Below, one piece after another: positions 957-18,033 of a DNA stretch of 44,769 bases. A program made the translations under genes and the position numbers. The notes below the pieces were generated by a model. That model was not told the DNA's origin. It was given only the letters and a program-made list of their open reading frames with translations, and made no database searches. Position 1 is the first letter of the stretch; every line of letters begins with the position of its first letter. The stretch comes from Spirochaetota bacterium (GTDB lineage Bacteria; Spirochaetota; UBA4802; UBA5550), in assembly GCA_050298055.1 (NCBI GenBank), contig JBNKTL010000043.1, positions 1 to 44,769 on the forward strand. Direction: 5' to 3'.

Positions 957-2192
957 TTATAAATAATCTAAAGGGCTTTTAATATCATTCTTGTATTCTA
1001 ATAGTACATGAGTATAAATCATTGTTGTTTCTAATTTTTTATGGCCTAATAATTCTTGCACAACTCTAATATTTACACCTGACTCTAATAAATGTGTTGC
1101 AAAACTATGTCTGAAAGTGTGAGCGCTGATTTTTTTAGGTATATTAGATTTGATTGAAGCGTTCTTAATTGCTTTTTGCACAACACTTTCATGTATGTGA
1201 TGCTTATAGGTTTTCCCGTCATTTTTATCTATATAAAAGTTTTTCGCAGGAAATACTCAATACCATTTAAACTCTCGTTCCGCATTTGGATATTTTCTCG
1301 ACAGAGCATCCGGTAATTTAACACGATTATTATCCAATACCTTATCTTTTTCAAAAATAATTTTTACATGTTCTATTTGATTTTGCAAATCCTGGATAAT
1401 TTTTTCGGGTATCATTACTATTCGGTCTTTATCTCCCTTGCCAGAATGGACTGTTATTATTTTTCGTGACAAATCAATATCTTTTATTCGAAGGGTCATA
1501 CATTCCATTAATCTTAAGCCTGAGCCATAAAGAATTTTTGATATGAGCAGGTTTTCATTATTAAGATATTTAAATACTTCAGTAACTTCTTTTCCCGTGA
1601 GTACCGTTGGAATTTTTCTATTTCTTTTTGCGCGCAGGGTTTCTTCCATATTTTCTAATTCTTTATACAGAACATGCCTGAATAAAAAAAGGATGGCATT
1701 AAACGCTTGATTCTGTGTCGAAGCCGCAACATTTTTTTCTTTTGCCAGATGAGTTAAAAAATTCTTAACATCCATTGAATTACACATTGAAAAACTTTTT
1801 TTAATATAATAATGAAACTGTTTTGTCCAATAGATATAATTTTTTTCAGTTTTACCGGAATAATGCTTTAACTTAATAGCATTATGGATTTGACGTATAA
1901 CAAATTCTAATGAAATTGCATCTTTATCTTTAATCAAAGTATATAATAAATTTACCGCATCAATTGCCTGGTTTATCTGCCAATCCCGGTATTTATTATT
2001 TTCATGAAGGTGCTTCGAAAAATTTCTGAGCATTTCACTTCGAGAAAGTTTTTTTTCATCATAACTATTTTTTTCGAGATATTTTAAAAAAAGCTCAACC
2101 CATATAATATAAAATTTTTTATTAGATTCTTTTATTTGTTGATGTTTTGCTATAATTATTTTATAATCGTTTATATATTCACTGAAAATCAT
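957..2192 (-). pseudogene. intI: Integron integrase, 411 codons, with one in-frame TGA at 1257-1259
   Basis: The two ORF pieces share a frame and read ...[43 protein letters not shown]...; motifs [37 protein letters not shown] and the IntI-specific insertion are present. Confidence 0.92.
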
Positions 2193-2235
2193 GCAAATTA
2201 CCTATTATACCGCAAGCTGTTTAAGCGGATATATT

Positions 2236-2273
2236 GCCCATATTCTGGGTAGCAGTTTATTAAGATGTTATAA
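2236..2273 (+). other. attI site (crossover G^TT at 2267/2268)
   Basis: Lies between the intI start and the first cassette; GTTATAA (2267-2273) is the exact complement of TTATAAC that opens the first attC. Confidence 0.85.
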
Positions 2274-2285
2274 CCAACAAAAATT

Positions 2286-2750
2286 ATGGAACCATATATT
2301 GAAATTTTAAAACTTGGCGTGGTCGGCATCGTGTCCGGTTTGTTTTCGGCTTATGTTGCTACACGCGGACATAGAAATAAAAAGTGGTGGGAACTAAGGG
2401 TGGCTGCGTATCAGTCAGTTATCGAAGCGCTTTCAGATTTAACACATTATTATAATCGCAAATATAAAGCTGAAATTGAGCATAGAGAAATCAGCGAAGA
2501 GTATGAAGCTGAACTAAGTAAGTTCTGGGATAGCAGTTACCATAAAGTAAGAAAAGCTGCTGATAGTGGCGTGTTTTTATTCTCTAAAGAGGTTAATGCA
2601 GCACTACAAGAATTCAAAAATTTACAAAATGAAGACCATCAAACATATTTTGAGTACCTGGATAGTTATTCTGCAATTGCTGAAAAGTGCCTAAAAACAG
2701 TTGTTGAATGTGCAAATAAAGACTTAAGAGTGAGAGATACTTGGTTATAA
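2286..2750 (+). CDS. Cassette 1: hypothetical protein with N-terminal TM helix
   Basis: 154 aa ORF whose stop lies inside the R'' box of attC1. Confidence 0.8.
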   Translation: MEPYIEILKLGVVGIVSGLFSAYVATRGHRNKKWWELRVAAYQSVIEALSDLTHYYNRKYKAEIEHREISEEYEAELSKFWDSSYHKVRKAADSGVFLFSKEVNAALQEFKNLQNEDHQTYFEYLDSYSAIAEKCLKTVVECANKDLRVRDTWL

Positions 2751-2805
2751 CAACGCCATCAAATCCGACGCTCGTACCTCGCGCGGCTTATGGCAAACGT
2801 TATCT
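2745..2805 (+). other. attC1 (61 bp)
   Basis: TTATAAC...GTTATCT with an imperfect palindrome. Confidence 0.9.
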
Positions 2806-2836
2806 CCACAAAAAATAAAAAATAATAGGATACTAA

Positions 2837-3574
2837 ATGCCCACATTCTGGAAATCATTTTTTGGATCATTTTTAGGGAAAATTACATCAGTACTTTTCA
2901 TTACTGTTTGTATGGCAATAGGGTTTGGTCCCGATGAATGGGCAAAATATCTTTTAAATGATTTACCAGTACACTTTAATCCAAGGGCGGCACAAATTCT
3001 TTTATTAATCCTTGGCGCCATTACACTTTTTTTTCTTTCATCTAGACTTCTTTCATCTCTTTTTACATCGTTTAAAAAGAAAGTTATTGATTTTTTAAGT
3101 GATATTGTGTGGTTTGATGGACCTCATTCAATTCACACTTTTGGTTACGTGATTAGTAAACCTAATAATATAGTTCTTGTTGATCACATTAGATTGAGGG
3201 GCAAAAATACCAAAAAATCATCTATATTTGTAAAAGTAGCATATATGCGTTCTTTGGTTTCGGGGGAACAAATCAAAGCAAAAATTAATAACTTAGATGC
3301 AGAAAATTTAGAAATCTTTAAAGGTTCAAGTTTTGACATTTATTTTAGCCTCCCCAATGAAGACGGGGCATTAGCCAACAACCACATTAAAGGTATTTCA
3401 TTTCAAAAATTTCTCCAACGATTTTCAAACTTTGAAATAGTGATTGAAACAGACAAAAAAAATCATATTATTGAATTTGATGATAAAGAAACCAAAAACT
3501 GGGTATCTTTAATCCAAAATGGTCTAATGATGCCAGCTCCTGGTGAAAAAGCAAGAGTTTTGAAAAAGAGATAA
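2837..3574 (+). CDS. Cassette 2: hypothetical membrane protein (2 N-terminal TM helices)
   Basis: 245 aa ORF with AGGA RBS; stop in R'' of attC2. Confidence 0.8.
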   Translation: MPTFWKSFFGSFLGKITSVLFITVCMAIGFGPDEWAKYLLNDLPVHFNPRAAQILLLILGAITLFFLSSRLLSSLFTSFKKKVIDFLSDIVWFDGPHSIHTFGYVISKPNNIVLVDHIRLRGKNTKKSSIFVKVAYMRSLVSGEQIKAKINNLDAENLEIFKGSSFDIYFSLPNEDGALANNHIKGISFQKFLQRFSNFEIVIETDKKNHIIEFDDKETKNWVSLIQNGLMMPAPGEKARVLKKR

Positions 3575-3690
3575 CAAAAGTTTACAGACCGACCGCCATC
3601 GCGCCTTTGCAGATGTCTAGTTGGTCTTTCTTGGCAAATAAATCATAAACACAAAATCAGCGTAGGCGGCGGCTGAAACTCGCGTTATGT
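3569..3690 (+). other. attC2 (122 bp)
   Basis: AGATAAC...GTTATGT; arms AGTTTACAGACCGACCGCC / GGCGGCGGCTGAAACT. Confidence 0.88.
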
Positions 3691-3717
3691 CTCTACTCAA
3701 AATGATGATTTTAAAAT

Positions 3718-4767
3718 ATGAATGAAATTTTAATTACACTTCCAGAATACTACAAAGCTATAGTTGAACGTCTTGCACGTGCAGATTGGTTAATTCATAA
3801 CTTCATAACTCAGGATTCTTCCGATCTCTATAATCCAGCAAACTATGTACACAATATTGAATTCAATAACACTGAATATCGTGCACTGATTGATCTCAAC
3901 ATTCTTCAATATATAGTTAACTGTGTTAAAAAAGAGACAGCCAAAGAACTTTATCGTGATGCGTGTGCGTTACTTATCTTTTTCCGGGCAGCCGAAATTC
4001 AGATCGAGCCAAATCTTGCCATATATGAACGTATTAACTACAATGCTGAAAACTTGGAAGAGGCACTTGATGACCTTTCCTTACTGAGAGCATTAGACAA
4101 TATAGATGTAGAACAACTTGCATGTTATGTATTAGGTGATGAAGGTGCTCTTAAAAATGTAGTCCCTGTTAAAATAGACCGAAAAAAAATCGGAGAGGAA
4201 CTAATTAAATATCATAGGCTCATTAACTGGGATTCAATTTACCTATTGGTCTTGAAAGCTGTTTCAGTTTACTGGGATAATGCAATACCCCATCAGAAAA
4301 AATTAGAGCTATATCTGGACTGGATGATACAAAATTTCCGTTTGTCCCTTCCTTGTATCGTATACGTAGTGAGAATGTTTGGCCATAACCCACTTACAAA
4401 AATGATGAAATTTAAAAACGATGGAAATGAGTATTTAAAACGTACTGCAGTTTTTAATATGACATGGGATCTATTTCATATTGATCACTATTTCAAGAAC
4501 TGGATTAATCCGGAAAAGGAGTGGGAGGAGTTATTCTTTACTCAGGATCGGATGCTTCGCTCATTGTTTAGGCTTGCGATTGAGGTTCAATATGCAGGTG
4601 AAATGACACCACTATTAACTTACCTTTCATCCCCTAAAGCCACAATGTGTCAAACACTAATAGAAGGCTACAGCGACCGAAATGATCGTGTTTACGGAAC
4701 AAGTAGGTGGTCACCTGAACACAGAAAAAATCTAATACGAAACTTGGAGACTGAGCTGTTTCATTGA
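3718..4767 (+). CDS. Cassette 3: hypothetical protein, possibly PIN-like nuclease fold
   Basis: 349 aa; ALIDLNIL near the N-terminus, WD and FFTQD acidic motifs near the C-terminus. Confidence 0.7.
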   Translation: MNEILITLPEYYKAIVERLARADWLIHNFITQDSSDLYNPANYVHNIEFNNTEYRALIDLNILQYIVNCVKKETAKELYRDACALLIFFRAAEIQIEPNLAIYERINYNAENLEEALDDLSLLRALDNIDVEQLACYVLGDEGALKNVVPVKIDRKKIGEELIKYHRLINWDSIYLLVLKAVSVYWDNAIPHQKKLELYLDWMIQNFRLSLPCIVYVVRMFGHNPLTKMMKFKNDGNEYLKRTAVFNMTWDLFHIDHYFKNWINPEKEWEELFFTQDRMLRSLFRLAIEVQYAGEMTPLLTYLSSPKATMCQTLIEGYSDRNDRVYGTSRWSPEHRKNLIRNLETELFH

Positions 4768-4768
4768 A

Positions 4769-4828
4769 ACATAACAAGGCTAATTCAGCCGACGCAAAAA
4801 GCCGCGCGGCTGATTGGCAACGTTAGAT
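4769..4828 (+). other. attC3 (60 bp)
   Basis: ACATAAC...AATTCAGCCGACGC-AAAAA-GCCGCGCGGCTGATT...GTTAGAT. Confidence 0.92.
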
Positions 4829-4905
4829 TTGTATTGAGTTGTTCGCCCTATCATAAAATTGTTACCAGACTATCATTAAGTATGTGGCCCGGAGGAGAGT
4901 TGATT

Positions 4906-6081
4906 ATGACAATTGAAGAATATTTTAAAAAAAATAATATTCCTCAAGAGTTTCTTCCTGTTTTCAACAATATACCGAATTATTTTTGGGGCAATATTAC
5001 TAAAATTGATAAAGAATATTGGGATTTATTTAAATCAAGAAATGGGGCTGATTTAATAATACCTAAATTAAAAAATGAATCAAATAATGATAAAATCAAA
5101 GATTTAAATTTTCAAATTAAATGGGAATCAATAGCTTTATTCTATAGATATAATCAAAATCAATATCATCAAGCCATACAGATAATTCAAGCTCTTTATG
5201 ATCAGATGATTGATTATCAGCTTGAATCAGGGAATATAATTCATAAAGGTATGCCACTAGTCTGGTTAAGAGATTTTCATCTTTTACTTGATCACCCTGT
5301 ATTAGCTAAAAGATATGCTATGTTAACTTTATGTGAAGATGTAATAAGAGATTTTAATAACAATAATTCATTAAACAAAAATGAAGGTGGAATATATTTT
5401 CGTTTAAATTGGTATCATGGTATGTCAGATAAAGAAATAGATAATTATTCCAACATTATTTATGAGAAATACAAAGAAGACAAAGAATTATCAAAATTTC
5501 CTGAATGGTTAATTCAAAATCTTGATAACAATTGGTTGATTGAGTATCCATCATTAAGTGAATTAATGATTTATAAACCAAATTTGAAATATGTAAAATT
5601 ATTATTAGATAAATCATTAACTGATACAACAGGAAAATATTTTGAATACATAGCCGACTATGTTTTATCAAATATCCCTGGTTTTAGAACTCACCTCAGA
5701 ACGTTAGCGGAATGTACTGATTATGATAATTTATGTATTATTGAAGGGGTTAGTGCTGACTTTAGGAGTGAATTGGGTAGATATGTTATTTGTGAATGTA
5801 AAGACTGGTCTAAACCTGCAGATTTTACTGTAATCTCTAAATTTGGCAGTGTAATAGATTCTGTTAAATGTAAAACCGGTATATTATTTTCAAAAGAAGG
5901 TATTACTGGAGAAGATAAAAATAAATTTGCTGAAAGAGAAATACTAAAAATATTTCAAAGAAATGGAGTCTCAATTTTATTAATTGAAGAAAATGATATT
6001 CTCAATGTATTGAATGGATATAATTTTATAGAAATTTTAAGAAATAAATACGAAAAAATTCGGTTTGATCTAAAAGAATAA
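4906..6081 (+). CDS. Cassette 4: protein with C-terminal Mrr-like PD-(D/E)xK restriction endonuclease domain
   Basis: GGAGG RBS before ATG 4906; C-terminal FEYI...DYD...VICECKDWSKPAD...GILFSKEGITG. Confidence 0.75.
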   Translation: MTIEEYFKKNNIPQEFLPVFNNIPNYFWGNITKIDKEYWDLFKSRNGADLIIPKLKNESNNDKIKDLNFQIKWESIALFYRYNQNQYHQAIQIIQALYDQMIDYQLESGNIIHKGMPLVWLRDFHLLLDHPVLAKRYAMLTLCEDVIRDFNNNNSLNKNEGGIYFRLNWYHGMSDKEIDNYSNIIYEKYKEDKELSKFPEWLIQNLDNNWLIEYPSLSELMIYKPNLKYVKLLLDKSLTDTTGKYFEYIADYVLSNIPGFRTHLRTLAECTDYDNLCIIEGVSADFRSELGRYVICECKDWSKPADFTVISKFGSVIDSVKCKTGILFSKEGITGEDKNKFAEREILKIFQRNGVSILLIEENDILNVLNGYNFIEILRNKYEKIRFDLKE

Positions 6082-6138
6082 AGTCATACCTTTAAAAGTA
6101 TTTTATTAATGTGCAGAAAGGTGTACAGCGTAAAAAAA

Positions 6139-6263
6139 ATCTAACATATGCTCAAGCCTGATGCTCCCCGCCCTTTGCGGCAGGTTGTTTTGCTTGTTCA
6201 ACGTCGTTTAACTTGCTTCGGGAGTCGGCGTCGCGGGTCGCACAGCTTAGCAAATCGTTAGGC
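6139..6263 (+). other. attC4 (125 bp)
   Basis: ATCTAAC...TGCTCAAGCCTG / CACAGCTTAGCA...GTTAGGC. Confidence 0.88.
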
Positions 6264-6309
6264 GTCATGTAGAAAAACTGAATATCAAGCAAGCTGAAGG
6301 AGCGGTATT

Positions 6310-6668
6310 ATGAAAGATTTACTTAACATTTACTACAAAGCTTTTGCAGATAAAGCAAATTGGGAAAGTGTCATCGCAGACGATTTTCAATTTGTCGGTG
6401 GAGATATGACAAACACCACTCCAATAGTTGGAAAACAGGCCTATATTGAGATAATAAAACGATTTTCACAGGTTTTAAATCGATGAGAGTTAAAGAAATG
6501 ATAATTGATGGAAGCAAAGCTTGCGTTATAGGAAATTATGATTACCAATTTCCAAACGGACAACAAATGAATGGTAATGTAGCTGAATTATGGACGGCGA
6601 AAGACGGCAAGCTTCAATCTTTGACGATCTATTTTGACACATTAACGTTTGCGAATAATTCAAAGTAG
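6310..6668 (+). pseudogene. Cassette 5a: SnoaL/NTF2-like protein with a 1-nt frameshift near 6473-6476
   Basis: AAGGAG RBS; MKDLLNIYYKAFADKANWESVIADDFQF... joins MRVKEMII...YFDT if one T is added to GGTTTTAAAT. Confidence 0.75.
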
Positions 6669-6678
6669 GCAAACAAAA

Positions 6679-7020
6679 ATGGCTTACAATACAAAACTTG
6701 CTGATAGGGTCAGAGAATATCTTGCTCATTTGCCCAATATACAGATAGAAGAGAAGAAAATGTTTGGAGGCCTAGCTTTTTTGGTCAACGGTAAAATGTG
6801 TGTGAATGTCAGCGGTGAAAACTTAATGTGTCGTTTTGATCCAAGCCTTGTAAAAGAAATTTCGAAAAGAAAAGGCTTTCAAACAATGATTATGAAGGGA
6901 AAGGAATACAAAGGTTATTGCTATGTAAGTCCAGAGAGGATTAAAACAGAAAATGACTTTGATTATTGGATAAAGTTATGCTTATCGTTCAACGAACAGG
7001 CAAAATCTACGAAGAAATGA
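6679..7020 (+). CDS. Cassette 5b: TfoX N-terminal domain protein
   Basis: MAYNTKLADRVRE...EKKMFGGLAFLVNGKMC signature. Confidence 0.85.
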   Translation: MAYNTKLADRVREYLAHLPNIQIEEKKMFGGLAFLVNGKMCVNVSGENLMCRFDPSLVKEISKRKGFQTMIMKGKEYKGYCYVSPERIKTENDFDYWIKLCLSFNEQAKSTKK

Positions 7021-7045
7021 AAGTTGCGCTTCTTCATGAAAGAAC

Positions 7046-7105
7046 GCCTAACAAGACAAATTCAGCCAACGCAAAAAGCCGCGCGGCTGATTTTCGTCGT
7101 TAGGC
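7046..7105 (+). other. attC5 (60 bp), close relative of attC3
   Basis: GCCTAAC...AATTCAGCCAACGCAAAAAGCCGCGCGGCTGATT...GTTAGGC. Confidence 0.92.
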
Positions 7106-7123
7106 AATAAAAACTAGAAGAAG

Positions 7124-7405
7124 ATGAATAAGAAAAATAAAAAACTCACTCCTGTACAAAAACGAGCAAAAAAGAAGGCAAAAGTCGAAAGACAAAAAAA
7201 GTATGAGTGGATTTTCATGAATGGTAAACAAGTCAGAATTAAACGACGACCCACAATAGATGGAATGGATGTTGATGAATTTATTCAAAATAATGCTGAT
7301 CCAATATGGCTTCATCAAAATGAAATGTGGGAATATATGGAACAAGAGAAATACGAAGATGATGATAGTAAGTCATTGAATGACAAAACAAAAAACAGAT
7401 TATAA
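7124..7405 (+). CDS. Cassette 6a: small hypothetical protein (basic N-terminus, acidic C-terminus)
   Basis: 93 aa ORF directly after attC5. Confidence 0.7.
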   Translation: MNKKNKKLTPVQKRAKKKAKVERQKKYEWIFMNGKQVRIKRRPTIDGMDVDEFIQNNADPIWLHQNEMWEYMEQEKYEDDDSKSLNDKTKNRL

Positions 7406-7408
7406 ACG

Positions 7409-7681
7409 ATGCAACATTCAAATAAAGACATCAAAGAAAAGCTGTTTAGGATTTATAAAAAGTATCAAGAATTACATAAAGGTAATCCAGATTCATTGCA
7501 GATGTTCTGTATGTGGTCTACTACAGATCCACCTGACATTTTAGAGGACAGCCCACCATTTCAAGACATAGAAACTGTTTTTAACATCTCAATAGATGAA
7601 GACAATTGTTTGGAATTATATGATATGGATTTAGATGAAGCAGTTGCTAAAATAGCAAATATTATCAAAAAACAATGCTAA
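7409..7681 (+). CDS. Cassette 6b: small acidic hypothetical protein
   Basis: 90 aa ORF; stop in R'' of attC6. Confidence 0.7.
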   Translation: MQHSNKDIKEKLFRIYKKYQELHKGNPDSLQMFCMWSTTDPPDILEDSPPFQDIETVFNISIDEDNCLELYDMDLDEAVAKIANIIKKQC

Positions 7682-7771
7682 CAAATGCATTAATACGGAT
7701 GTTTTTCGCACCGTTTCGTTCGCTACGCTCTCTACACTCTGCGAAAAACACCGGTTATGCTGGTGTTGGGC
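7676..7771 (+). other. attC6 (96 bp)
   Basis: TGCTAAC...GCATTAATACGGATGTTTTTCGCA / TGCGAAAAACACCGGTTATGC...GTTGGGC. Confidence 0.88.
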
Positions 7772-7791
7772 ATCAAATTAAGGAGGAATAA

Positions 7792-8055
7792 ATGGCCACA
7801 GAACACCTTGATATTCCAAACTGCCCAAAGTGCCCGGATGTGCATAGATACAAACTCGATGTTGAGAGAGCGCTTGTAATCAAAATGCTCACTATGTCAG
7901 ATATGAGTGAGCGCCCTCGACAGGTAAAGGTTACCCGTCTATTCACCTGTCCTACAACAAACGAAGAATTTGAGGCTAGGTTCATTCTCACAGACACCTC
8001 ATCAGATAGAATTAAGGATGTCAAAGTCGTGGGTATAGCTAATGCCGATGAATGA
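7792..8055 (+). CDS. Cassette 7a: small Cys/His (zinc-ribbon-like) protein
   Basis: AAGGAGG RBS; CPKCPDVH...FTCP. Confidence 0.75.
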   Translation: MATEHLDIPNCPKCPDVHRYKLDVERALVIKMLTMSDMSERPRQVKVTRLFTCPTTNEEFEARFILTDTSSDRIKDVKVVGIANADE

Positions 8056-8503
8056 AACAAAGAACACAAAAATCGAACTTGAGCAAGTTCAGGATGTAAC
8101 CCCCCATAATAAAGCATTATACGAAGCTGGTAAGAAACTGCTTGTTGATTCTGTAGATGTGGGACGTGAGTTTTGCAAATTCATGACGACAACAACTATT
8201 GGAGCAATACCAACATATCTTGCCCTTCTCAAACTCGTACTTCCGAAAGATTACAGTCTACAATCATATGATGAAATCTTATTTCTTTCCCCTCCAATTG
8301 TCTTCTTGATTTCGGCAGTTCTGTTTGTTCTAGGGTATTTTCCCCAAAAAGGAAGTCTATCATTGGATTTGCCGGCTGAAATCGAAAGAGAACGTAGCGA
8401 GACCATCAGACGTCGACATTTTTATGCAGTCGCGGGTTTTTCCGTGTTTTGTATAGGCATAGTCTTGGGAGTTTGGGTTGTGGTTAATAGATTGATAAAA
8501 TGA
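8048..8503 (+). CDS. Cassette 7b: hypothetical 3-TM membrane protein
   Basis: Overlaps 7a; three hydrophobic segments. Confidence 0.75.
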   Translation: MNETKNTKIELEQVQDVTPHNKALYEAGKKLLVDSVDVGREFCKFMTTTTIGAIPTYLALLKLVLPKDYSLQSYDEILFLSPPIVFLISAVLFVLGYFPQKGSLSLDLPAEIERERSETIRRRHFYAVAGFSVFCIGIVLGVWVVVNRLIK

Positions 8504-8512
8504 ACGAAGGAA

Positions 8513-8601
8513 GCCGAACAAAAGCATGGAGAGGGGCTGGTAAAAGCGGCGCGCCCTTCGGTTGTGCCCCTTTTACCAGCCCCTCATGCTTGGCGTTATG
8601 C
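8513..8601 (+). other. attC7 (89 bp), last recognisable full attC
   Basis: GCCGAAC...AGCATGGAGAGGGGCTGGTAAAAG / CTTTTACCAGCCCCTCATGCT...GTTATGC. Confidence 0.9.
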
Positions 8602-8757
8602 GGGAAAAAATAAAAAACTCTCAATCAATCTTAAACCAGGGAACCACATTTACACCAGGTATGAAATGGTTATATTTTTATATAAATACTCATAAATGAC
8701 TTTACAAAATAATTTTTTCAAACCAGTATAGTGCTCAGCATATGAAAGGTTGAAAAC

Positions 8758-9066
8758 ATGAACCTGCTATTCGTTGAAGATAATAAAACTATGCAGGGCA
8801 TAGTGGGCGGCATATTTGAATCATGGGGAATTGAATATGATATAGCCTCCAACGGAAAAGAAGCGTTTGAACTTGCCGTCCGCAACGAAGGGAAATATGA
8901 TGTCTGCTTCATGGATACAAACATGCCTGTCATGAACGGATTTGAAGCAACCAGGGCCATAAGAAAAAAGGTAAGATACTTCCCCATTTTGTCTACTTCA
9001 CTGGAAGAAGGGTATGAAAAAAAATTGCTGGAAGCAGGCGCGGATGATTTTATAGTGAAGCCCTGA
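8758..9066 (+). CDS. Response regulator receiver domain, probably truncated
   Basis: LFVEDN...FMDTNMPVMNG...GADDFIVKP; stops directly after KP, so helix 5 is missing. Confidence 0.75.
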   Translation: MNLLFVEDNKTMQGIVGGIFESWGIEYDIASNGKEAFELAVRNEGKYDVCFMDTNMPVMNGFEATRAIRKKVRYFPILSTSLEEGYEKKLLEAGADDFIVKP

Positions 9067-9511
9067 AAAAGAATCTCATGACGGAATTTCTCAACCGTGA
9101 TCCGGATAAACCTACATTATGTGATTTATATAGAGGTCACAAAAATTGTATAGTCGAAACGTTTTTAGGTGAAGAAGACTATAATGAGAAACTGGCTGTC
9201 GAAAATGAAGAAATGGCAAAACACGCGAAAAAATATTTTAAGGATGAAGATGAATAGGGTATTTTAATAGCAGATAAAAACGTGAATAAGTTGTTTTTTA
9301 CCTCTGCGTGAAGAGGGGAACTCTTCCGGCATGGGGGAAAGTGAGTGATCTCTGCGCCCTCTGTGTGAAATTTCTTCTTCCTCTTCTTTTACGGACTTTG
9401 CGGTTAAATATATTTATTTAAAAAACTGCTTATATACCGAAAAAAATTTTTATATTTTCCCTCCTCGATCGTATTAATACAAAACACTTAATCAATCAAC
9501 GGAACAACTCA

Positions 9512-10408
9512 ATGACAAAAAAGAAAAAACTCTCACAGGATGGGATGATAAAGGGCCTGATCCGTGACTATCCCGAAGATGCCCTGGAGTTCTTCGAGCC
9601 GGAAATTTATAAGAGATACGGGAAACCGGTTTCAGTGGAGTTTCATATCCAGGAAAACAAAAAGCATCATCACCGGGATCTCAAACTCATCAATGATATT
9701 GCGGTGATCTACCGGTTCAAAAACAGGAAAAATATTGTCCTTACACTTGTAGAACACTGGTCCCAAAAATCAAAGTTTGACATACACAGATTTGCCCAAT
9801 ATCTTATCGACCTGGATTTCCAATTTCCCGGATATGAAAAGCTGCCTGTTGCCCTTTTCACCGATGAAGCGAAAAAATGGGACAAAGATATCCGGCGGGA
9901 GATAACAATTAAATGCCTTGATAAAGTCTATATGAGCTTTACCTTCAGACTTATCAGAATGAAAGATCACGAAGCGGAAAAATACAGGGAGACTAAAAAC
10001 AGGTTTCTGGCAGTACTCAAGTCTGCTATGAGATGGGACAGAGATGATAAAATATTTCTTGCGGTTGATTTCATTAAAAATTACACTGATATTGAAAAGG
10101 AAATAAAAATCGCAATAAAGAATATTGACATAATTGAATATTATCTGCATATTGATGATATTGAAAAAGAAAGGATTACGGATATATTAGAAGGGAAGAA
10201 GGAGTCAAATATGATTGTCGAAGAATTAATTAAAAAAGGCAAAATAGAAGGTAAAATTGAAGGTAAAATTGAAGGTAAAAATGAAGGCATTCTGGAAGGC
10301 AGACTAAAAGACGCCAGGAAAATGCATGAAAAAGGCTTCTCCCTTGAAGACATTATCGATATAACCGAACTCTCAAAAGAAGAATTGAAAAATGCGGGAA
10401 TTTATTGA
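9512..10408 (+). CDS. Rpn family PD-(D/E)xK nuclease (recombination-promoting nuclease/putative transposase)
   Basis: QDGMIKGLI...FFEP, D...VEHWS, and typical C-terminal GKIEGKIEG repeats plus a ...IIDITELS tail. Confidence 0.8.
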   Translation: MTKKKKLSQDGMIKGLIRDYPEDALEFFEPEIYKRYGKPVSVEFHIQENKKHHHRDLKLINDIAVIYRFKNRKNIVLTLVEHWSQKSKFDIHRFAQYLIDLDFQFPGYEKLPVALFTDEAKKWDKDIRREITIKCLDKVYMSFTFRLIRMKDHEAEKYRETKNRFLAVLKSAMRWDRDDKIFLAVDFIKNYTDIEKEIKIAIKNIDIIEYYLHIDDIEKERITDILEGKKESNMIVEELIKKGKIEGKIEGKIEGKNEGILEGRLKDARKMHEKGFSLEDIIDITELSKEELKNAGIY

Positions 10409-10416
10409 GTGATAAA

Positions 10417-10670
10417 TGGGATGCAGCAGAGCACCTTGATACAGAAGACGATATGGCTGCGATCCCTCATTGATTGCGGCAGCGCTGGGTGATATTGCAA
10501 GAGCAAAAGGAATGTCAGAAATCGCGGAACAAACAGGTCTTGGCAGGGAAAGCCTCTACAAAGCATTATCCCCGGAAGGAAATCCGGAATTTGCTACGGT
10601 CTTAAAAGTCGTTAATGCGCTGGGTTTATAAACTGCATGCTGTCCCGGATAAAATTAAATTTACTGCCTG
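10417..10670 (+). pseudogene. Addiction-module antidote protein (HI1420-like HTH) remnant
   Basis: WDAAEHLDTEDDMAA / ALGDIARAKGMSEIAEQTGLGRESLYKALSPEGNPEFATVLKVVNALG in broken frames with no start. Confidence 0.8.
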
Positions 10671-10719
10671 ACAATAGATTCAATACAAACAAAACCAGAA
10701 ATCTGATCAAAACTGAACA

Positions 10720-10944
10720 TTGTATGAAAAATACACAGGTTGTTTTTTGATTGATTATGATAATGGAGAGCATGGCGTGCTTGATATGAAGCCTTTTCTC
10801 GATTTCGGAATTTTTCAGCGCTTAAAAGACTACGATATTTTTAAACATGTTCGGGTATCTTTTGATACGGTAGAGAGGGAATCCGGGATCGATCTCGACC
10901 CCGAGTTTGTGTATGAGAAGTGTAACCGTACTGGCTTGGATTGA
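10720..10944 (+). pseudogene. DUF2442 (DhiA-like antitoxin), N-terminally eroded
   Basis: YDNGEHGVLDMKPFLDFGIFQRLKD...VRVSFDTV...GIDLDPEFVY. Confidence 0.7.
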
Positions 10945-11029
10945 AATACATAAAGATGATTTGCTCGCGGATTGGGAACTTGCCGTTAATGGTAAAACGC
11001 CATTTAAAATCAGGGGATTAGATCAATGA
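10931..11029 (+). pseudogene. DUF4160 (DhiT-like toxin) C-terminal fragment
   Basis: LAWIEIHKDDLLADWELAVNGKTPFKIRGLDQ*, with ATGA overlap to the next gene. Confidence 0.8.
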
Positions 11030-11256
11030 GAATTGCTAAAATTATACCCAATCAGGATTATACTCTCCAAATTATTACAGAAGACGGTAAAACCGGGATT
11101 TTCGATGTCAGTCCATATTTAGAACTGGAAGCTTTTACCGAATTAAAAAAACAGGATGCTTTTCAAAAAGTAACAAATGGCCGTTATTTTATTGAATGGG
11201 ATTGTGGTGCTGATTTATCAGCCGATAGAATCGAAGCTCATTTAAAAAGTGCGTAA
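11026..11256 (+). CDS. DUF2442 domain protein (DhiA-like antitoxin)
   Basis: DYTLQI...FDVSPYL...IEWDCGADLSAD. Confidence 0.85.
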   Translation: MRIAKIIPNQDYTLQIITEDGKTGIFDVSPYLELEAFTELKKQDAFQKVTNGRYFIEWDCGADLSADRIEAHLKSA

Positions 11257-11492
11257 TAATGAAATACGGAAGCTATAGATGGCTTCTTAAAAATGCGGAA
11301 AAATTTGGTCATCTGCCTTCTGGCTTCAACAGTCGGCTGTTTCATGAAATTCATACCTGTATTACTCTTGACAATTTGTCCGCATCATCTAACATAAGGA
11401 TGTGATGTGGTGTTAGCGCATTATTAAAAAACAAAGTGCGCCTGGTTTTTCTGATTATAAAGAGATAACATTTTTATAAGTGCTATTAATAT

Positions 11493-11527
11493 GCCCATAT
11501 TCTGGGTAGTGGTTTAGTAAGACGCTA
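11493..11527 (+). repeat. attI-like copy B
   Basis: 30/35 identical to 2236-2270; core GTT changed to GCT. Confidence 0.85.
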
Positions 11528-11644
11528 TGCGTAAAAGGTGTCGCTTTGAGTAGGGAAGATTGGTACAGAAACGTTAAATTGAAAATAAACCCGCGTTTTG
11601 ATTGAAACTTCATATATTCGCGGGACGCTATTGGAGAAGATATC

Positions 11645-12574
11645 ATGAAAGAAGCCATTAAAACTACCGTGACAATATCCGCGTTTACGATCGTTTTCCT
11701 CGTTCTGTTTTCATGCGCGAAACCCGACGCTCAGCCCTCCGGCGATCAGCCCTCCGGTGATCAGCACTCCGGCGATCAGCCGTTCCAGCATAATCCAATC
11801 AGCGAAAACTTCGATGCAGCCGATAAGCCTTCCTACGAAACAAAAACTTATGACGACAACGGTACCTCGCGGAGTTACGAACTTATGCTCCCATGGAACT
11901 ACGATAAAGATTACAACGCAGACAGGAACTATCCCCTGATGATTAATGTCCACTACTCGGGAAGCCTCGTTGCGGGTAAAACAGACAGAATGCAGGACTA
12001 TCCATGCTTTTGCCTGAATGCCGCTGCCAACAGCGATTGGGTTTACGCCATGGTTGCTGAACTGGTTGCCAACTATAGAATCGATACGAATAGGATCTAC
12101 CTGGCAGGATTCTCCGCTGGTGGTTCAGGTTCCTATCCTTTCGCTTCAAATCTGGAAGCGCAGCAGGGGCTAATCGTCGCAGGCATCGTCCGCTGTGCCG
12201 GCGGAAGTAACACCGCTTTATCCAATGCCATAGCGGGTAAAACCTCGGTCTGGTACCACGTAGGTCTGCAAGATTCCTACGACTTCGGATATGGTAACGG
12301 ATTATTAAGCGAAGACCCAAATGATGACAGGCGCATCTCCAACAAGGCCTACGGTTATGTCAAAGGCCTGGATACCAGTGTCGGAGCTGTTGAAACTGTA
12401 AAAATGGCGACTGTCTCGGGTTATGAACGCACCACCACCGCTCTAGGCCTGTCAGGAGTTGAGATCTTCAAAAGAAGCCATTACGCAGAAATGGGGCATA
12501 CCGGATCCCCGGCTTATGCTGATCAGGAAGTAGTGAAGTGGCTGTTCAACCAGCACCTGTCGAATCGAGATTGA
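11645..12574 (+). CDS. Lipoprotein with alpha/beta-hydrolase (esterase/peptidase) domain
   Basis: GGAG RBS, lipobox LFSC, RIDTNRIYLAGFSAGG nucleophile elbow, C-terminal MGH. Confidence 0.8.
   Translation: MKEAIKTTVTISAFTIVFLVLFSCAKPDAQPSGDQPSGDQHSGDQPFQHNPISENFDAADKPSYETKTYDDNGTSRSYELMLPWNYDKDYNADRNYPLMINVHYSGSLVAGKTDRMQDYPCFCLNAAANSDWVYAMVAELVANYRIDTNRIYLAGFSAGGSGSYPFASNLEAQQGLIVAGIVRCAGGSNTALSNAIAGKTSVWYHVGLQDSYDFGYGNGLLSEDPNDDRRISNKAYGYVKGLDTSVGAVETVKMATVSGYERTTTALGLSGVEIFKRSHYAEMGHTGSPAYADQEVVKWLFNQHLSNRD
11731..11790 (+). repeat. 15-bp coding tandem repeat, 4 copies (QPSGD)
   Basis: TCAGCCCTCCGGCGA / TCAGCCCTCCGGTGA / TCAGCACTCCGGCGA / TCAGCCGTTCCAGCA. Confidence 0.9.
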
Positions 12575-12765
12575 GATAAGGATCAGAAGAAATTAAAAAG
12601 TATGGTTTTTCTCATATATTAAAGGTTGAGGAGGAATGCTTGTGAATGGTCATCCAACAGACAAAACCACAAGTCATTTTAGTGGATATTTAATCCATAT
12701 TTTGGATTTATTCTGTATTAAAAATGATTTTTTACAATAAAAATTGAAAAGTGTTGAGTTTGATT

Positions 12766-12821
12766 CTTCTTGACTTCTTGCAATATGCCCTTATTCTGGA
12801 TGGCAGTTTAATAAGATATAC
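12766..12821 (+). repeat. attI-like copy C with sigma70-like promoter (TTGACT-N16-TATTCT)
   Basis: 12787-12817 is 27/31 identical to 2236-2266; GTT core lost. Confidence 0.8.
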
Positions 12822-12834
12822 TCAAAAGGATAAT

Positions 12835-13260
12835 ATGCAAATTATATCAATCGCTCTGACAGCCTCGTTTGTAATTATTGCAGTTTTTCATATTTTCTGG
12901 GCACTGGGTTTCAAATTCGATATCCGGAATATGGTACCTGTTGTAAACGGTGAACCTGTTCTTATTCCTGGCCCTGTTGGGACCTTTATTGTCGCGATTG
13001 TTTTGTTTTGCTTTGCAGGCGTTTCTCTGGCACTGGGCTATCCCGGCAAAGTGCCTGTCAGCTGTTTGCCGTTTCTGAAACCAGCAGGCTTTGCAATAGG
13101 AATCATACTGCTTTTAAGGGCCGTTGGAGATTTTAAATATGTTGGCTTTTTCAAAAGGATTAAATACAGCAATTTCGCAAAATATGACTACTGGTTGTAC
13201 TCTCCATTTTGTTTATTAAGTGGCGGGGCGCTTGTATACCTGGCAAAAAACTTAACATAA
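12835..13260 (+). CDS. DUF3995-like membrane protein
   Basis: FHIFWALG...LRAVGDFKYVGFFK...YSPFCL; AAGGA RBS. Confidence 0.8.
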   Translation: MQIISIALTASFVIIAVFHIFWALGFKFDIRNMVPVVNGEPVLIPGPVGTFIVAIVLFCFAGVSLALGYPGKVPVSCLPFLKPAGFAIGIILLLRAVGDFKYVGFFKRIKYSNFAKYDYWLYSPFCLLSGGALVYLAKNLT

Positions 13261-13380
13261 TAACTGCTTCCACAGAAACTTGCTCAACAGACTTGATGAC
13301 TGGGTTGATATACGCTCACCATCATTGAAGAAAATGAAATTTCATCTCTTAAAATTCTCCATAAAAGAAAGAATTCTATT

Positions 13381-13443
13381 CTTCTTGACATCGATTAAAA
13401 TACCCATATTCTGAATAGCAGTTTATTAAGATGTTATGCGGGA
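13381..13443 (+). repeat. attI-like copy D with sigma70-like promoter (TTGACA-N16-TATTCT) and intact GTT core
   Basis: 13402-13436 is 32/35 identical to 2236-2270. Confidence 0.88.
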
Positions 13444-13450
13444 TAGATAG

Positions 13451-14140
13451 ATGCGAATCTGGGATATTGACCCGGGCTATTTGAATCGTCAAAGTTTACT
13501 TGGGGAGCATCGGGAATTACATGCCCTGGTTTCAATTGTTGTAAATGGAAAACAGGGATATTCGCAACATCCGGAAACCATCAGGTGGCTGAAGTACGGC
13601 TGGGCTTTAAAATACCGGCACAAGCAGCTCTCCTGTTAAATGAAACTCAGGGGATATCATGATCAGTCACCGGTTCGAACCCGGTCAAATCCGGGATGCT
13701 GGCCGGCAGGATATATAGATACACCGGCTCATCAATTTGAAATACTTAAAGATAAGTACACCGGTAAGGAAAAAGGCCGGATTGAATTACCCTCAAGTGT
13801 GGAACAACTCTGGCGGCAGCATAAGTATTCCGTTCTTGCCCGTGATCCGGGTTTGTATAAGTCAATCGGGCAGAATGTGGCTCGTAAGAGAACCAATATG
13901 CCGGATTTATCCGAATTACTCGTGAAAATGTTACGAACGCCCCCCGGTGAAGGAGGCATGAGAAATGCCGTCCAACATATGTGGGGGTATGTTTCTCGTG
14001 GCTCCCCGGAAAAAAACGAAAAAATTAACAGATGGTCTACAGCAAGGCTCTTAAAAGAAACTCAAAAAAGAGCAATAGGGCAGGGCGAGCCGTATATTAT
14101 GAATTCTACTGCTTTGGGTGAGTTGATGGTGTGGCTCTAA
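13451..14140 (+). pseudogene. Pyrimidine-dimer DNA glycosylase-like / DUF1722 fusion with in-frame TAA at 13637-13639
   Basis: MRIWDIDPGYLNRQSLLGEHRELH...HPET; same-frame continuation MKLRGY...HKYSVLARD...NAVQHMWGY. Confidence 0.78.
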
Positions 14141-14166
14141 AGCGCATAATTTTTTATCTATTAAAT

Positions 14167-14222
14167 CTCTTGACGCTCATTGTTACGACCCATATTGTCA
14201 TCAGCTGAATAATAAGTTGCCG
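14167..14222 (+). repeat. Divergent attI-like copy E with promoter (TTGACG-N17-TATTGT)
   Basis: 14188-14219 matches copy D at 23/32 ungapped. Confidence 0.55.
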
Positions 14223-14359
14223 GATATAAGGAGCTTGAGAAGGAGAGAACATATAAGAAACGGCTCAAATATACACAGACAGCGCACACGTCAAAGCCGC
14301 TAAGTGGAATCACTGGCCTGGTATTATTGTAAGTGGTTTAGAATGTGAGAAGATATTTA

Positions 14360-14722
14360 ATGAAGAAAAAAATCTTTTTAATCGTAATACCTTTAATTTT
14401 CGCACTGTACGCTGCTTTAAGAATAAACACATTAAAACAAATAGACGCTTACAGCGATTCCTTCTTTAGAGAATTCTCACAATCAGGAGAAATGAAAATT
14501 CAAAAATATCTAAGCAAAAACCTGGAGCCGGGAAAAGCATCTTCTCTTCTCAAAAAACATAGTCAGGCAATTGCAAACTTTAATTTCAAAAGAACAAAGC
14601 CGGATATTAATCTTCTCCTTAACAGGGCAATCATAGATGTTACCTGGCATATAACAATTATATTTGAGAAAGAAAAAAATGATTGGATAATATCTGAACT
14701 CAAAGACTATGGAAATGATTAA
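14360..14722 (+). CDS. Hypothetical protein with N-terminal membrane anchor
   Basis: MKKKIFLIVIPLIFALYAAL... Confidence 0.65.
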   Translation: MKKKIFLIVIPLIFALYAALRINTLKQIDAYSDSFFREFSQSGEMKIQKYLSKNLEPGKASSLLKKHSQAIANFNFKRTKPDINLLLNRAIIDVTWHITIIFEKEKNDWIISELKDYGND

Positions 14723-14787
14723 ATAAACGTGATAAACAAATGGAAGAAAATAATTATAAGCCGCTGGGTATTTTTTGGAGTAAACAG

Positions 14788-15324
14788 ATGAACCTGTCCG
14801 AATACAAATTTAGTGATATTGAAGAAATAGAAAAACTATTCATTAAAGTTTTTTCAGATTCAGAAGGAGAATCAGAAGGATTCTTAATAGGAAAGTTGAC
14901 CCATGATCTGATGAGCACTACTGCTCCCGGAGACCTTTACGGATTTGTTGCCAGAGAAAATGGGCAAATTATCGGCAGCATCTTTTTTAGCAGATTTACG
15001 CTTGAATGCGAGGTCAGTGCTTTTATTTTGTCCCCCGTTGCCATACACACAGACTACCAGGGACAGGGCATTGGTCAAAAGTTGATTAACTATGGAATTA
15101 ACTATCTCAAAGAAAACGGGGTTGATTTGGTTTTTACCTATGGTGATCCCAATTTTTATAAGAAAGCAGGCTTTAGAAGTATTACCGAAGAAATAGTAAA
15201 AGCACCTTTTAAGTTGAAATATCCATTTGGCTGGCTTGGCCAGTCATTAGTCAGCAGCCATATTGAACCAATTAAAGGGAAAACATATTGTGTGGACGCA
15301 CTCAATAATCCCGAATATTGGTAG
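14788..15324 (+). CDS. GNAT family N-acetyltransferase (YhbS-like)
   Basis: LSPVAIHTDYQGQGIGQKLI, YGDPNFYKKAGF; GGAG RBS. Confidence 0.9.
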   Translation: MNLSEYKFSDIEEIEKLFIKVFSDSEGESEGFLIGKLTHDLMSTTAPGDLYGFVARENGQIIGSIFFSRFTLECEVSAFILSPVAIHTDYQGQGIGQKLINYGINYLKENGVDLVFTYGDPNFYKKAGFRSITEEIVKAPFKLKYPFGWLGQSLVSSHIEPIKGKTYCVDALNNPEYW

Positions 15325-15510
15325 AAAATAAAATTCGGATTTAAAAAAAGAAAACGGGTAGCAACTTGTTTTGGCGGATGGCAACGCACTTTACTATACC
15401 CGGTACAATTATTAATCATCTTACTCAGTATTAAACAATAATTTTGCCCAGCATTTAAATATTACATGTACCGTTGAAAAGATGTAGAAAAGAATAAGGT
15501 ATTTTAAATA

Positions 15511-15849
15511 ATGAATATATCAAAAAATGAACAGATAGCTGCAATTCTTGAAGCCAATGAGTGGGAATTAGCAGAAAAATGCGGGGTACATGGACCGCGT
15601 AAAATTCCCTGGAGTATCACAAAGAAAGATGTTTATCATTATATTGCCCAATACGGGTTTCCCAAAGGATGGGTATATTTTTCAGAGCAAACTTATGATG
15701 GAATCTATCTCCTGCAAATTGAAAATGAATGGAGTGTTTCATACAAGGAAAGAGGAATCATTCATTCCGAATCAAAATTTGCCACGAAAGGGGAAGCAAT
15801 GGATTTTCTTCTGGATGAATATTATCTTAAGAGAAATGGAATTTCATAA
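15511..15849 (+). CDS. Hypothetical protein
   Basis: 112 aa ORF with AAGGT RBS, ending in TCATAAC. Confidence 0.65.
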   Translation: MNISKNEQIAAILEANEWELAEKCGVHGPRKIPWSITKKDVYHYIAQYGFPKGWVYFSEQTYDGIYLLQIENEWSVSYKERGIIHSESKFATKGEAMDFLLDEYYLKRNGIS

Positions 15850-15861
15850 CATCAGAGAATA

Positions 15862-16000
15862 AACCGCCAGGACGCGAAGATCGTAAATAAAAGTTATTTA
15901 ATGTTAAATTATAAAATCTGTTTTTAATCAGAGAACTCAACATTCAACATTTAAAATTTACCATTCAATTTAACTTCGCGTCCTTTGTACTTTTGCGGTT
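15862..16000. repeat. Inverted pair of CGCnAAG-triplet repeats enclosing TTnAAnATT tracts
   Basis: AACCGCCAGGACGCGAAG ... CTTCGCGTCCTTTGTACTTTTGCGGTT. Confidence 0.7.
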
Positions 16001-16031
16001 CAAATTCGTTCTTAACCCGAAACCCGGAACT

Positions 16032-16556
16032 TTACCTTATTTCCGTGAATGAATCAATCATCTGCTGGTAGGTGGAATTGAACTCGTATTTCTGGCTCTT
16101 CAGTGTCCAGGTGAAGATCTGGTAAAAATGGGTCGGTGATTGGACCACGGCAATTTTATAGTAGATCCCCACATTGTTTCCCTTGAGCTTTCCCTCAAGA
16201 TCGGTCTGGTATATCTTCAGGTTCCCCCTGTTAGAGCTCTTGACTTTTTCGACATTTGCGTCTTTAAGGCCGGTTACGATATTAAAGACCGCCATCTTAT
16301 AATAGATACCCAGGTTGAGCTTCAAATTACCCCTGGCCAGGTCCTGAATAGACTCATCTATGACGATGACATACATCTCCTTTGAAGGGTTGAAATACTG
16401 GAGAGAGGCAATATTGTTCAGTTTGTTTGTTGTTTTCAGGCTGTCCGGCACGCTGATGGAGTAGAGTCCCTTGATAGTGACATTCCGCATTGAACTCTGA
16501 GCATTCAACCCGGTTACTAAAGTCAGAAGCAAGAGTAGAGCAGCAAATTTTTTCAT
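16032..16556 (-). CDS. Exported hypothetical protein
   Basis: Signal peptide MKKFAALLLLLTLVTGLNA; AAGGAG RBS. Confidence 0.8.
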   Translation of the reverse strand: MKKFAALLLLLTLVTGLNAQSSMRNVTIKGLYSISVPDSLKTTNKLNNIASLQYFNPSKEMYVIVIDESIQDLARGNLKLNLGIYYKMAVFNIVTGLKDANVEKVKSSNRGNLKIYQTDLEGKLKGNNVGIYYKIAVVQSPTHFYQIFTWTLKSQKYEFNSTYQQMIDSFTEIR

Positions 16557-16704
16557 GATTTATGACTCCTTTCATTAATTTCAAAATTAACGATATAATA
16601 TATCCTGAAAAGAATTTAATCAATAAAAATTTTTCCCGGAGAAAATTATTTATTCTCTTAAGGAAACCGGGACGGAAACCTATACAAAAGACCGAAAAAG
16701 TTCG

Positions 16705-16793
16705 GCCACAGATGCACGCAGATTAACGCGGATATTTATTTTATTCTTTTGTTTTTCTTCGTTTATCAGCGTCTATCTTCGTGCATCTGCGGC
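16705..16793. repeat. Inverted pair of CRCAGAT-triplet repeats
   Basis: GCCACAGATGCACGCAGATTAACGCGGAT ... ATCAGCGTCTATCTTCGTGCATCTGCGGC. Confidence 0.7.
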
Positions 16794-16934
16794 TCATTCT
16801 TCTTCATATTATTAGAAAAATAAGTGACTTCAACAGATTAATAATTTAAAAACAAATCGTTATTATAGATCAAAATAATCTTTTAAAATTGACTTGAACC
16901 GGAGACGCTTATCTGCTAATGATCATTTTTGACC

Positions 16935-17837: not shown

Positions 17838-17975
17838 ATTTTGAATTTTGAATTGAAGAGAGGGATTTTGCCACAGAGACCATTTTTTCAATGTTGAGTT
17901 TTAAATTTTGAATGTTAAATTAAAGAAACCGTTCTTGATTTGACAATTTAAAGTTTAACATTCAAAATTCAACAT
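17830..17975. repeat. AATTTTGAATT-type low-complexity repeat in inverted arrangement
   Basis: AATTTTAAATTTTGAATTTTGAATT ... TTTAACATTCAAAATTCAACATT. Confidence 0.6.
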
Positions 17976-18033
17976 TATCCAAAACTTCGTGGTAAAAAAT
18001 CTTAATGGATATTCTATAAAAAGGATTAATAAC

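Follow-up and report, generated by a model that had tools for sequence, protein, structure and literature searches.

Copies of an attI-plus-promoter module dispersed through a spirochaete genome are probably decaying duplicates of an integron platform

Integrons as a rule have one attI docking site each. The attI1 site is described as a double-stranded site of about 65 bp next to intI, with the crossover at G/TT of a GTTRRRY-like core; cassettes enter it by attI x attC recombination, and a promoter is directed into them (PMC3518468, PMC4889954). A copy of this site, attI1*, has been reported ahead of aac(6')-Ib in Tn1331-type elements, away from intI and at the start of the gene, in a region resembling the variable part of an integron (PMC3656343). 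Partial integrons, classified as CALIN and In0, are thought to result from loss of intI, rearrangement or insertion at secondary sites, and have been proposed as a step towards the fixation of captured genes (PMC4889954). Promoter reuse, i.e. the occurrence of highly similar promoters ahead of unrelated genes within and between genomes, has been described in prokaryotes (PMC3575422). Here we analyse a stretch of 44,769 nucleotides (the window; contig JBNKTL010000043.1 of assembly GCA_050298055.1, Spirochaetota bacterium), in which an element of 65-70 bp lies next to a broken integron integrase gene and recurs several times beyond the cassette array. Judged from its sequence, the identification of the element as the attI site with the cassette promoter (Pc) belonging to a lineage of chromosomal integrons, present in uncultured Leptospirales and other spirochaetes, is well supported. 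The copies away from the integron, which we call orphans, are probably decaying duplicates of the integron platform, kept as promoters for the genes behind them, and not substitutes for attC sites.

The locus shares with attI1 and Pc of the class 1 platform a site of about 65 bp beside intI, a crossover between G and TT and a promoter pointing towards the cassettes, and its repeated CCCATATT(C/A)TGG boxes may be analogous to DR1 and DR2, the accessory integrase-binding sites of attI1. It differs from attI1 in that the sequence is unrelated, Pc is located inside the attI region and not in intI, and conservation of the site extends over several spirochaete families. As in the Tn1331-type elements, attI copies are found at gene starts away from any intI; attI1*, however, occurs once, on a resistance transposon, and has a regular attC behind it and no promoter module of its own, whereas here a dispersed chromosomal family is observed. 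Like CALIN and In0, the orphans are parts of integrons without the rest of the system, but CALIN need two or more attC sites, In0 need intI, and the orphans have neither. Unlike the reused promoters, the promoter here is built into a site-specific recombination site, which suggests a route of spread that the general concept of promoter reuse leaves unspecified. No description of dispersed attI copies was found in the literature searched for orphan or duplicated attI sites. The features of the window are as follows (A-left denotes the intI-proximal part of the module, see below).

957..2192, minus strand: intI pseudogene, interrupted in frame by a TGA (1257-1259) that lies upstream of the C-terminal catalytic part
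2208..2270, plus strand: copy A, attI in the canonical place beside intI, short form, heading seven cassettes
2746..8603, plus strand: array of seven cassettes, attC sites read from the sequence
2746-2807, 3570-3693, 4770-4830, 6140-6265, 7047-7108, 7677-7763 and 8499-8603, plus strand: the seven attC sites
11466..11528, plus strand: copy B, orphan module of the short form, crossover triplet GCT, E-value 4.5e-11
12665..12715, plus strand: copy X, decayed relic of A-left and box, which with copy C makes up a long two-part platform
12756..12822, plus strand: copy C, TTGACT-16-TATTCT, core 14/16, GTT lost, E-value 7e-16
13371..13437, plus strand: copy D, TTGACA-16-TATTCT, core 16/16, GTT intact, E-value 3e-17
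14159..14220, plus strand: copy E, decayed, TTGACG-17-TATTGT, core 12/16, GTT lost, E-value 6e-8

In copy A the crossover falls between 2266 and 2267 (intI starts at 2192), and G2266 with the next six nucleotides (GTTATAA, 2266-2272) pairs without a mismatch with TTATAAC, the R'' box of attC1. Complementarity to R'' at the crossover is the expected product when a circular cassette is inserted by attI x attC recombination. Nine distinct copies had behind them a gene and then an attC-like hairpin, copy A from the window and eight from other genomes and metagenomes (L027, L029, L030/L031 of genome G033, L032, L035, G158, G012:C373 and G001). In seven of these (A, L027, L030/L031, L035, G158, G012:C373 and G001) the G and the six nucleotides after it were complementary in all seven positions to the R'' heptamer of the first attC, the chance of each such match being about 1/256 beyond the fixed AAC/GTT; the exceptions were L029 (3/7) and L032 (5/7). 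When 13 strong copies were compared in the columns outside the search pattern (see below), pairwise identity was 0.59, 0.71 and 0.85 at the consecutive positions G, T and T, and then dropped to a background of 0.30. Complementarity between R' and R'' at seven array heads and conservation that stops at GTT are properties of a recombination site, and it is because of them that the module is identified as attI. Genomes G001 and G012, which belong to different genera, carry an identical 54-nt module with divergence directly after GTTAT (L049, G001:C10:89635-89688; L048, G012:C373:6-70), which suggests that the platform has been transferred horizontally or is under strong constraint; each of the two copies lies at a contig end and each is followed by a different cassette.

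With respect to other properties that distinguish the sites of an integron, a position beside intI and ahead of the first cassette was found for copy A only, and tblastn detected neither intI nor a relic of it near B, X, C, D, E or the copies on other contigs. The usual number of one site per integron does not hold for the genome. The modules do not have the imperfect palindrome, hairpin and R''/L''/L'/R' boxes of an attC: as single-strand hairpins they folded no better than shuffled sequences (z -0.2 to -1.2), and z values of -2.4 and -4.2 were obtained for attC3 and attC5. No Rfam family reached its gathering score in the window, the sole hit in 11300-14400 being at chance level (E 2.1). Other identities considered for the motif were abandoned. 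That it is not a general attI had been concluded from the lack of matches at E<1 in all eight IntI loci of the order, and this was overturned when the intI contig of G012 was found to end between the two boxes of the module, with its TTGAC module on another contig. An end of a MITE or an insertion sequence (IS) was rejected after alignment of 13 copies with 85-nt flanks, in which homology extended over about 70 nt, in one orientation and without inverted ends. Readings of the core as a LexA-type or a sigma-54-type site were dropped, the spacing not fitting their consensus sequences.

The integrase gene next to copy A is divergent. Its read-through product matches the Pfam families Phage_integrase and Phage_int_SAM_4 and shows 77% identity to the intact IntI of G012; by tblastn it is the sole integron-integrase gene of the genome, the other tyrosine recombinases being at most 31% identical. 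The TGA at 1257-1259 occupies the position of a Trp in the relatives (FKWYW), so a nonsense mutation is the simpler reading of this codon. To follow variation, contigs of three DNA runs (X1-X3) from one study were compared with the window, X1 being possibly the source sample; no variant at the TGA was among those listed for X1 and X2. Copy A itself consists of the A-left palindrome region, a CCCATATTCTGG box and the core CAGTTTATTAAGATG, followed across the crossover by TT. It has no TTGAC -35 box, and consensus scans called no promoter-like site at its TATTCT. A promoter-like TTGATG-17-TATAAT is present at 2139-2167 (plus strand), inside the 5' end of intI and directed at the cassettes; given the missing -35 box of copy A, this site could be the promoter of the array, a location similar to that of Pc inside intI1 of class 1 integrons.

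The earlier note on this DNA had proposed that the left arm of attI recurs in the same orientation 9-12 kb from intI, and this was confirmed. A repeat search returned a 42-nt family with 2230-2271 as the reference and members at 11487-11528 (81%), 12781-12822 (74%) and 13396-13437 (88%), and the three clear copies B, C and D differ from the 35-mer at 2236-2270 by 5, 7 and 3 mismatches, in agreement with the 30/35, about 27/31 and 32/35 counted before. The pattern CCCATATTCTG-N5-CAGTTTANTAAGAT, with 24 specified bases and up to 3 mismatches, had four matches in the window, all on the plus strand, and none in 100 dinucleotide-preserving shuffles. The two weaker copies proposed in the note also proved real. 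The one near 12678 is 21/29 identical without gaps, as had been counted, and the local alignment of 12665-12704 with 2208-2247 (29/40) scored 36, the maximum in 300 shuffles being 26. The other, 14188-14219, is 72% identical to copy D; aligned alone with copy A, copy E scored 22, which falls in the shuffle range, and it was with the TTGAC half included that the family model recognized it at the E-value listed above.

The module occurs in a long, two-part form and in a short form. The first part of the long form is A-left, made up of a palindrome TTAAAC-N7-GTTTAAGCGG and a CCCATATT(C/A)TGG box, and the second part, about 65 nt further on, contains TTGACA, a spacing of 16-17 nt, TATT(C/A)T inside the second box, and the core CAGTTTAnTAAGATG with TT behind the crossover, where cassettes enter. 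The long form is whole in L032, in which a 14-residue relic of the intI C-terminus, the A-left palindrome TTAAAC-CGCATGC-ATTTAAGCG, the first CCCCATATTAT box and a spacer of about 65 nt are followed by TTGACG, 16 nt, TATTAT in the second box, the core CAGTTTATTAAGATG and a ZIP-transporter cassette with its attC. Copies X and C together (12665-12822) repeat this two-part layout, the spacing between box and TTGAC being 66 nt vs 65 nt in L032. In the short form, found in A, B, G158 and L030, A-left is joined directly to box and core, without TTGAC. The contig of G012 that carries an intact intI ends inside the spacer between the boxes, and another contig of the same genome starts with a TTGAC module heading a cassette; the long form is thus probably the one present in this lineage's intact integron, even though the assembly leaves these contigs separate. 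The palindrome TTAAAC-CGCA(A/T)GC-(N)GTTTAAGCG was observed between the start of intI and the attI box in four lineages (window 2208-2235; L011 1-85; L032 205-235; L036, in G158, ahead of the motif), and it could be an operator of the intI promoter.

At copies C, D and E, TTGAC -35 boxes are located 16-17 nt ahead of TATTCT or TATTGT, as the earlier note had it, and promoters were called there from consensus matches. The sigma-70-type hexamers, their spacing and their direction towards the cassettes are those of a Pc, so far as consensus matching goes. No -35 match was found by the consensus scans at A and B. The repeat is, as had been proposed, the left arm of attI, joined at C, D and E to a near-consensus promoter with no integrase beside it. 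In the nine TTGAC-type copies of the genome 95 of 108 positions were matched in the promoter hexamers and 110 of 144 in the core, as determined by best-offset matching in which one copy (C62b) was mis-parsed to the disadvantage of the promoter. The crossover triplet has been lost in three of the five strong orphan copies of the genome (B, C and C62a) and retained in D and C4; it is likewise altered in G019, but in only one of the nine copies heading arrays. From their sequence features, the orphan modules would most plausibly act as promoters.

The module is not confined to the integron, and was found on six other contigs of the genome, seven in all. A covariance model used in sequence-only mode (R1) gave 13 matches at E<=0.01 in the genome, five of them in the window and nine at E<1e-7, and one or two matches in each of 20 among 121 other genomes of the order. 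Outside the window, a fuzzy search gave two strong copies, at C4:73457 and C62:15933, and nhmmer added C6:30657, C58:1424 (minus strand), C62:15128, C22:81811 (minus strand) and a weak copy at C6:86582; C62:15128 comes on top of the 13 model matches. In a phylum sample of 401 genomes the pattern matched in five and a reversed-pattern control in two; a scan of metagenomes gave nine exact-pattern matches, six of which (five distinct) were family members and three chance-like. IntI was found in 8 of 122 genomes of the order, and the module occurs also in genomes without an integron integrase. In G158 it heads cassettes, IntI being absent from the 1.5 kb upstream and from the whole 92%-complete genome; G033 has only relics of intI, the fragment in L030 being located 1.8 kb upstream and separated from the module by a 4Fe-4S membrane gene; no intI was found in the 731 nt of L027. 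In three congeneric species, G063, G065 and G066 (L051, L052 and L054), a diverged module TTGACT … TATTAT … TAGTTTAAGAATATGTTAG precedes the same DUF2442-like gene, and no attC was found; it looks like a fixed promoter copy.

The orphans B, X, C, D and E are located 3-6 kb past the end of the array, and the genes behind them are unrelated. According to Pfam, copy B is followed after 117 nt by a lipoprotein gene (11645-12574) with weak alpha/beta-hydrolase matches, copy C by a DUF3995 gene (probable start 12836, end 13260), copy D by Pyr_excise (13451-13639) and DUF1722 (13640-14140) genes, and copy E by a gene of no Pfam family (14345-14722) and a GNAT gene (14740-15324). These fit the hydrolase lipoprotein, DUF3995 protein and glycosylase described earlier, and no attC was found behind them. 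The TAA of the Pyr_excise frame (62 aa) directly abuts the ATG of the DUF1722 frame, indicating a split gene or a tight two-gene unit. On the other contigs, a truncated methyltransferase, hicAB, a membrane protein, a ParE-type toxin-antitoxin set, a PD40 lipoprotein and a small open reading frame (ORF) stand behind orphans. Near-identical promoters thus precede non-homologous genes, the situation described for reused promoters. By eye, no shared tail was recognized at the 3' ends of the units. Copy D is followed by TTATGCGGGA, which is identical to the 10 nt following the last attC (8598-8607); six of the ten bases are the common R' box TTATGC, hence the identity is only a weak hint.

Sites resembling attC were sought with two hairpin scans, each of which found five of the seven known attC sites and which together found all seven; one scan missed the attC of G158, which was found by eye. 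An attC covariance model was dropped, the MAFFT alignment of the seven sites being poor in the centre. These crude scans revealed no intergenic attC-like hairpin in 8.6-16.1 kb, their only two hits being inside coding sequence, and no attC-like site after the first gene at the C4, C62, C6, C58 and C22 copies or at G019. Within 3 kb, B, C, D and C4 had no matching R'' heptamer; behind C62a the sole exact R'' match lies inside hicA, without a hairpin. In these searches none of the approximately 11 orphan copies of the genome was followed by a cassette with attC, and the two or more attC sites without a nearby intI that mark a CALIN were not found by the scans.

The genome contains copy A in the canonical place, next to an intI broken by the TGA, and about a dozen copies without integrase or cassette. 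The reading that we regard as probable is that the latter are duplicates of the platform, the recombination function of which would decay; the surviving part would be the promoter driving the gene behind it, probably kept by selection. The copies may have multiplied by attI x attI recombination or by recombination of attI with secondary sites while IntI was intact; alternatively, segmental duplication followed by deletion could have produced them. The earlier note had gone further, in that it took the modules for replacements of attC sites in the integron's tail. This was not supported: the array ends with attC7 at 8603, about 2.9 kb of genes without attC follow up to copy B, and the module occurs on six other contigs and in genomes without an integron integrase. 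The supposed tail past 8603 is best read as ordinary accessory DNA with several decayed platforms.

Several observations weigh against decay with retention of the promoter. The difference between promoter and core is based on nine copies and best-offset matching. D and C4 have a perfect or near-perfect core with GTT and could still recombine. The hairpin scans being crude, decayed attC sites behind orphans could have been overlooked. Finally, a contig of X2 fuses position 2248, inside copy A, directly to 13377, which is the 5' edge of module D by multi-copy alignment; the depth of this contig is 7.2, equal to that of the intI contig, and it ends 37 nt after 13377, as expected on entering a repeat. 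The copies therefore rearrange or exist in other arrangements, which is easier to reconcile with an active role than with simple decay.

The samples differ in both platform and array. In X2 the depth was 0.25 over 5337-6003, 2-4 over cassettes 1-3 and about 7 on the flanks. Many contigs of X1-X3 (compared over 2002-6003 of the window) share attC1 (2746-2748, 2796) and attC3 (4773, 4815, 4824) with other flanks, suggesting that the community contains a pool of related cassettes. A second contig over about 11345-11560, including copy B, was present in X1 and X2, with a 1-nt deletion at 11426; in X1 it has full depth (10.1) and is joined in the opposite orientation to about 15972, beside a REP-like repeat. 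The assembly may lack a second copy of this stretch or a variant in which it is inverted.

A tentative alternative, which we hold to be possible but not likely, is that the platform of attI and Pc was itself propagating. An active IntI would have copied the site with its strong promoter across the chromosome, by recombination of attI with attI or with secondary sites, giving a distributed integron in which cassettes could enter and be expressed at many places and a single integrase acted in trans, and after loss of IntI a family of promoters would have remained.

The multi-attI integron suggested earlier, in which the modules would be recombination sites of attC-less circles consisting of a gene and the left part of attI, so that in the tail attI replaces attC by attI x attI recombination and each gene has its own promoter, we consider unlikely. 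The units are 615-786 nt apart with one gene each, the core and GTT are retained in D and C4, the X2 contig links copy A to module D, and attI x attI recombination is documented for IntI1, as an inefficient reaction (1.8e-4) (PMC7790495; PMC3518468). On the other hand, GTT has been lost at B, C and E, and these junctions could therefore not recombine now; no module or attC lies in the 2.9 kb between the array and B, the copies on the six other contigs are outside any array, and intI is broken. The identical 10 nt behind the last attC and behind the crossover of D would speak for such circles, but only the four bases beyond the R' box are informative, and no circle or insertion polymorphism was seen at an orphan copy.

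It is doubtful that the orphans are live capture platforms, i.e. working docking sites resembling In0 that are served in trans by an integrase from elsewhere and are currently empty. Elsewhere the module does head true cassettes without an intact intI nearby (G158, L027 and L030), and the samples are not alike in the cassettes of the main array, as seen from the depths in X2. However, the arrays without intI could have lost it after capture, the genome has no intact IntI, no orphan in it is followed by a cassette with attC, and GTT or the core is mutated in most of them.

A promoter-plus-operator family of a regulon, with the core as a transcription-factor site that the integron merely shares, is improbable. 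The core has imperfect palindromes (CTG-N5-CAG; CAnnTTAnTAAnnTG) with variable central bases, and the module precedes unrelated genes on many contigs; as to the occurrence of an operator genome-wide, which the earlier note had named as the finding that would contradict it, the dispersal was indeed observed, but elsewhere the module heads true cassettes and is therefore not a transcription-factor operator. Complementarity at seven array heads, with conservation that breaks off exactly at GTT, is characteristic of a recombination site and not of an operator, the downstream genes (toxin-antitoxin pairs, a methyltransferase fragment, lipoproteins, DUF3995, glycosylase) share no function, and other genomes of the order carry 0-2 copies, several of which head cassettes.

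An assembly artefact, with extra copies created by chimeric joins, is hardly credible: although this metagenome-assembled genome is in 199 contigs and modules are often at contig ends in other assemblies (G012:C373, G001, L035 and G033), contigs of X1, possibly the source sample, span 8903-12568 and 12539-17919 unbroken, contigs of X2 and X3 cover B, X and the E unit, contamination is 0.77%, and the copies differ by 12-26% and are therefore not collapsed repeats.

Two further observations concern the surroundings. A toxin-antitoxin pair of a HepT-like ribonuclease and an MntA-type nucleotidyltransferase is encoded just outside intI (143-779, minus strand). GC-rich REP- or MITE-like repeats flank the region of the integron and the modules (77-135, 884-925, 9290-9400, 15860-15990 and 17823-17990); they contain …CGCGAAG… and …GCGCAAAG…, and 15897-15978 is 71% alike to 17908-17989.

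Treponema is given as the only spirochaete clade reported with integron platforms in 2013 (PMC3607928), and such platforms are now extended beyond it. The attI site is described as the least known part of integrons, unknown for most of them and not amenable to a generic search (PMC4889954); here it has been delimited to the nucleotide in an integron lineage of spirochaetes, in which it is conserved across families and occurs many times without integrase or cassettes. If these copies are, or once were, competent for recombination, an integron need not be a device with a single entry. If they are only promoters, they provide a concrete route from a recombination site to a dispersed promoter family, by which captured genes would become fixed. 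Should the platform have propagated itself, integron recombination would be a mechanism of promoter spread.

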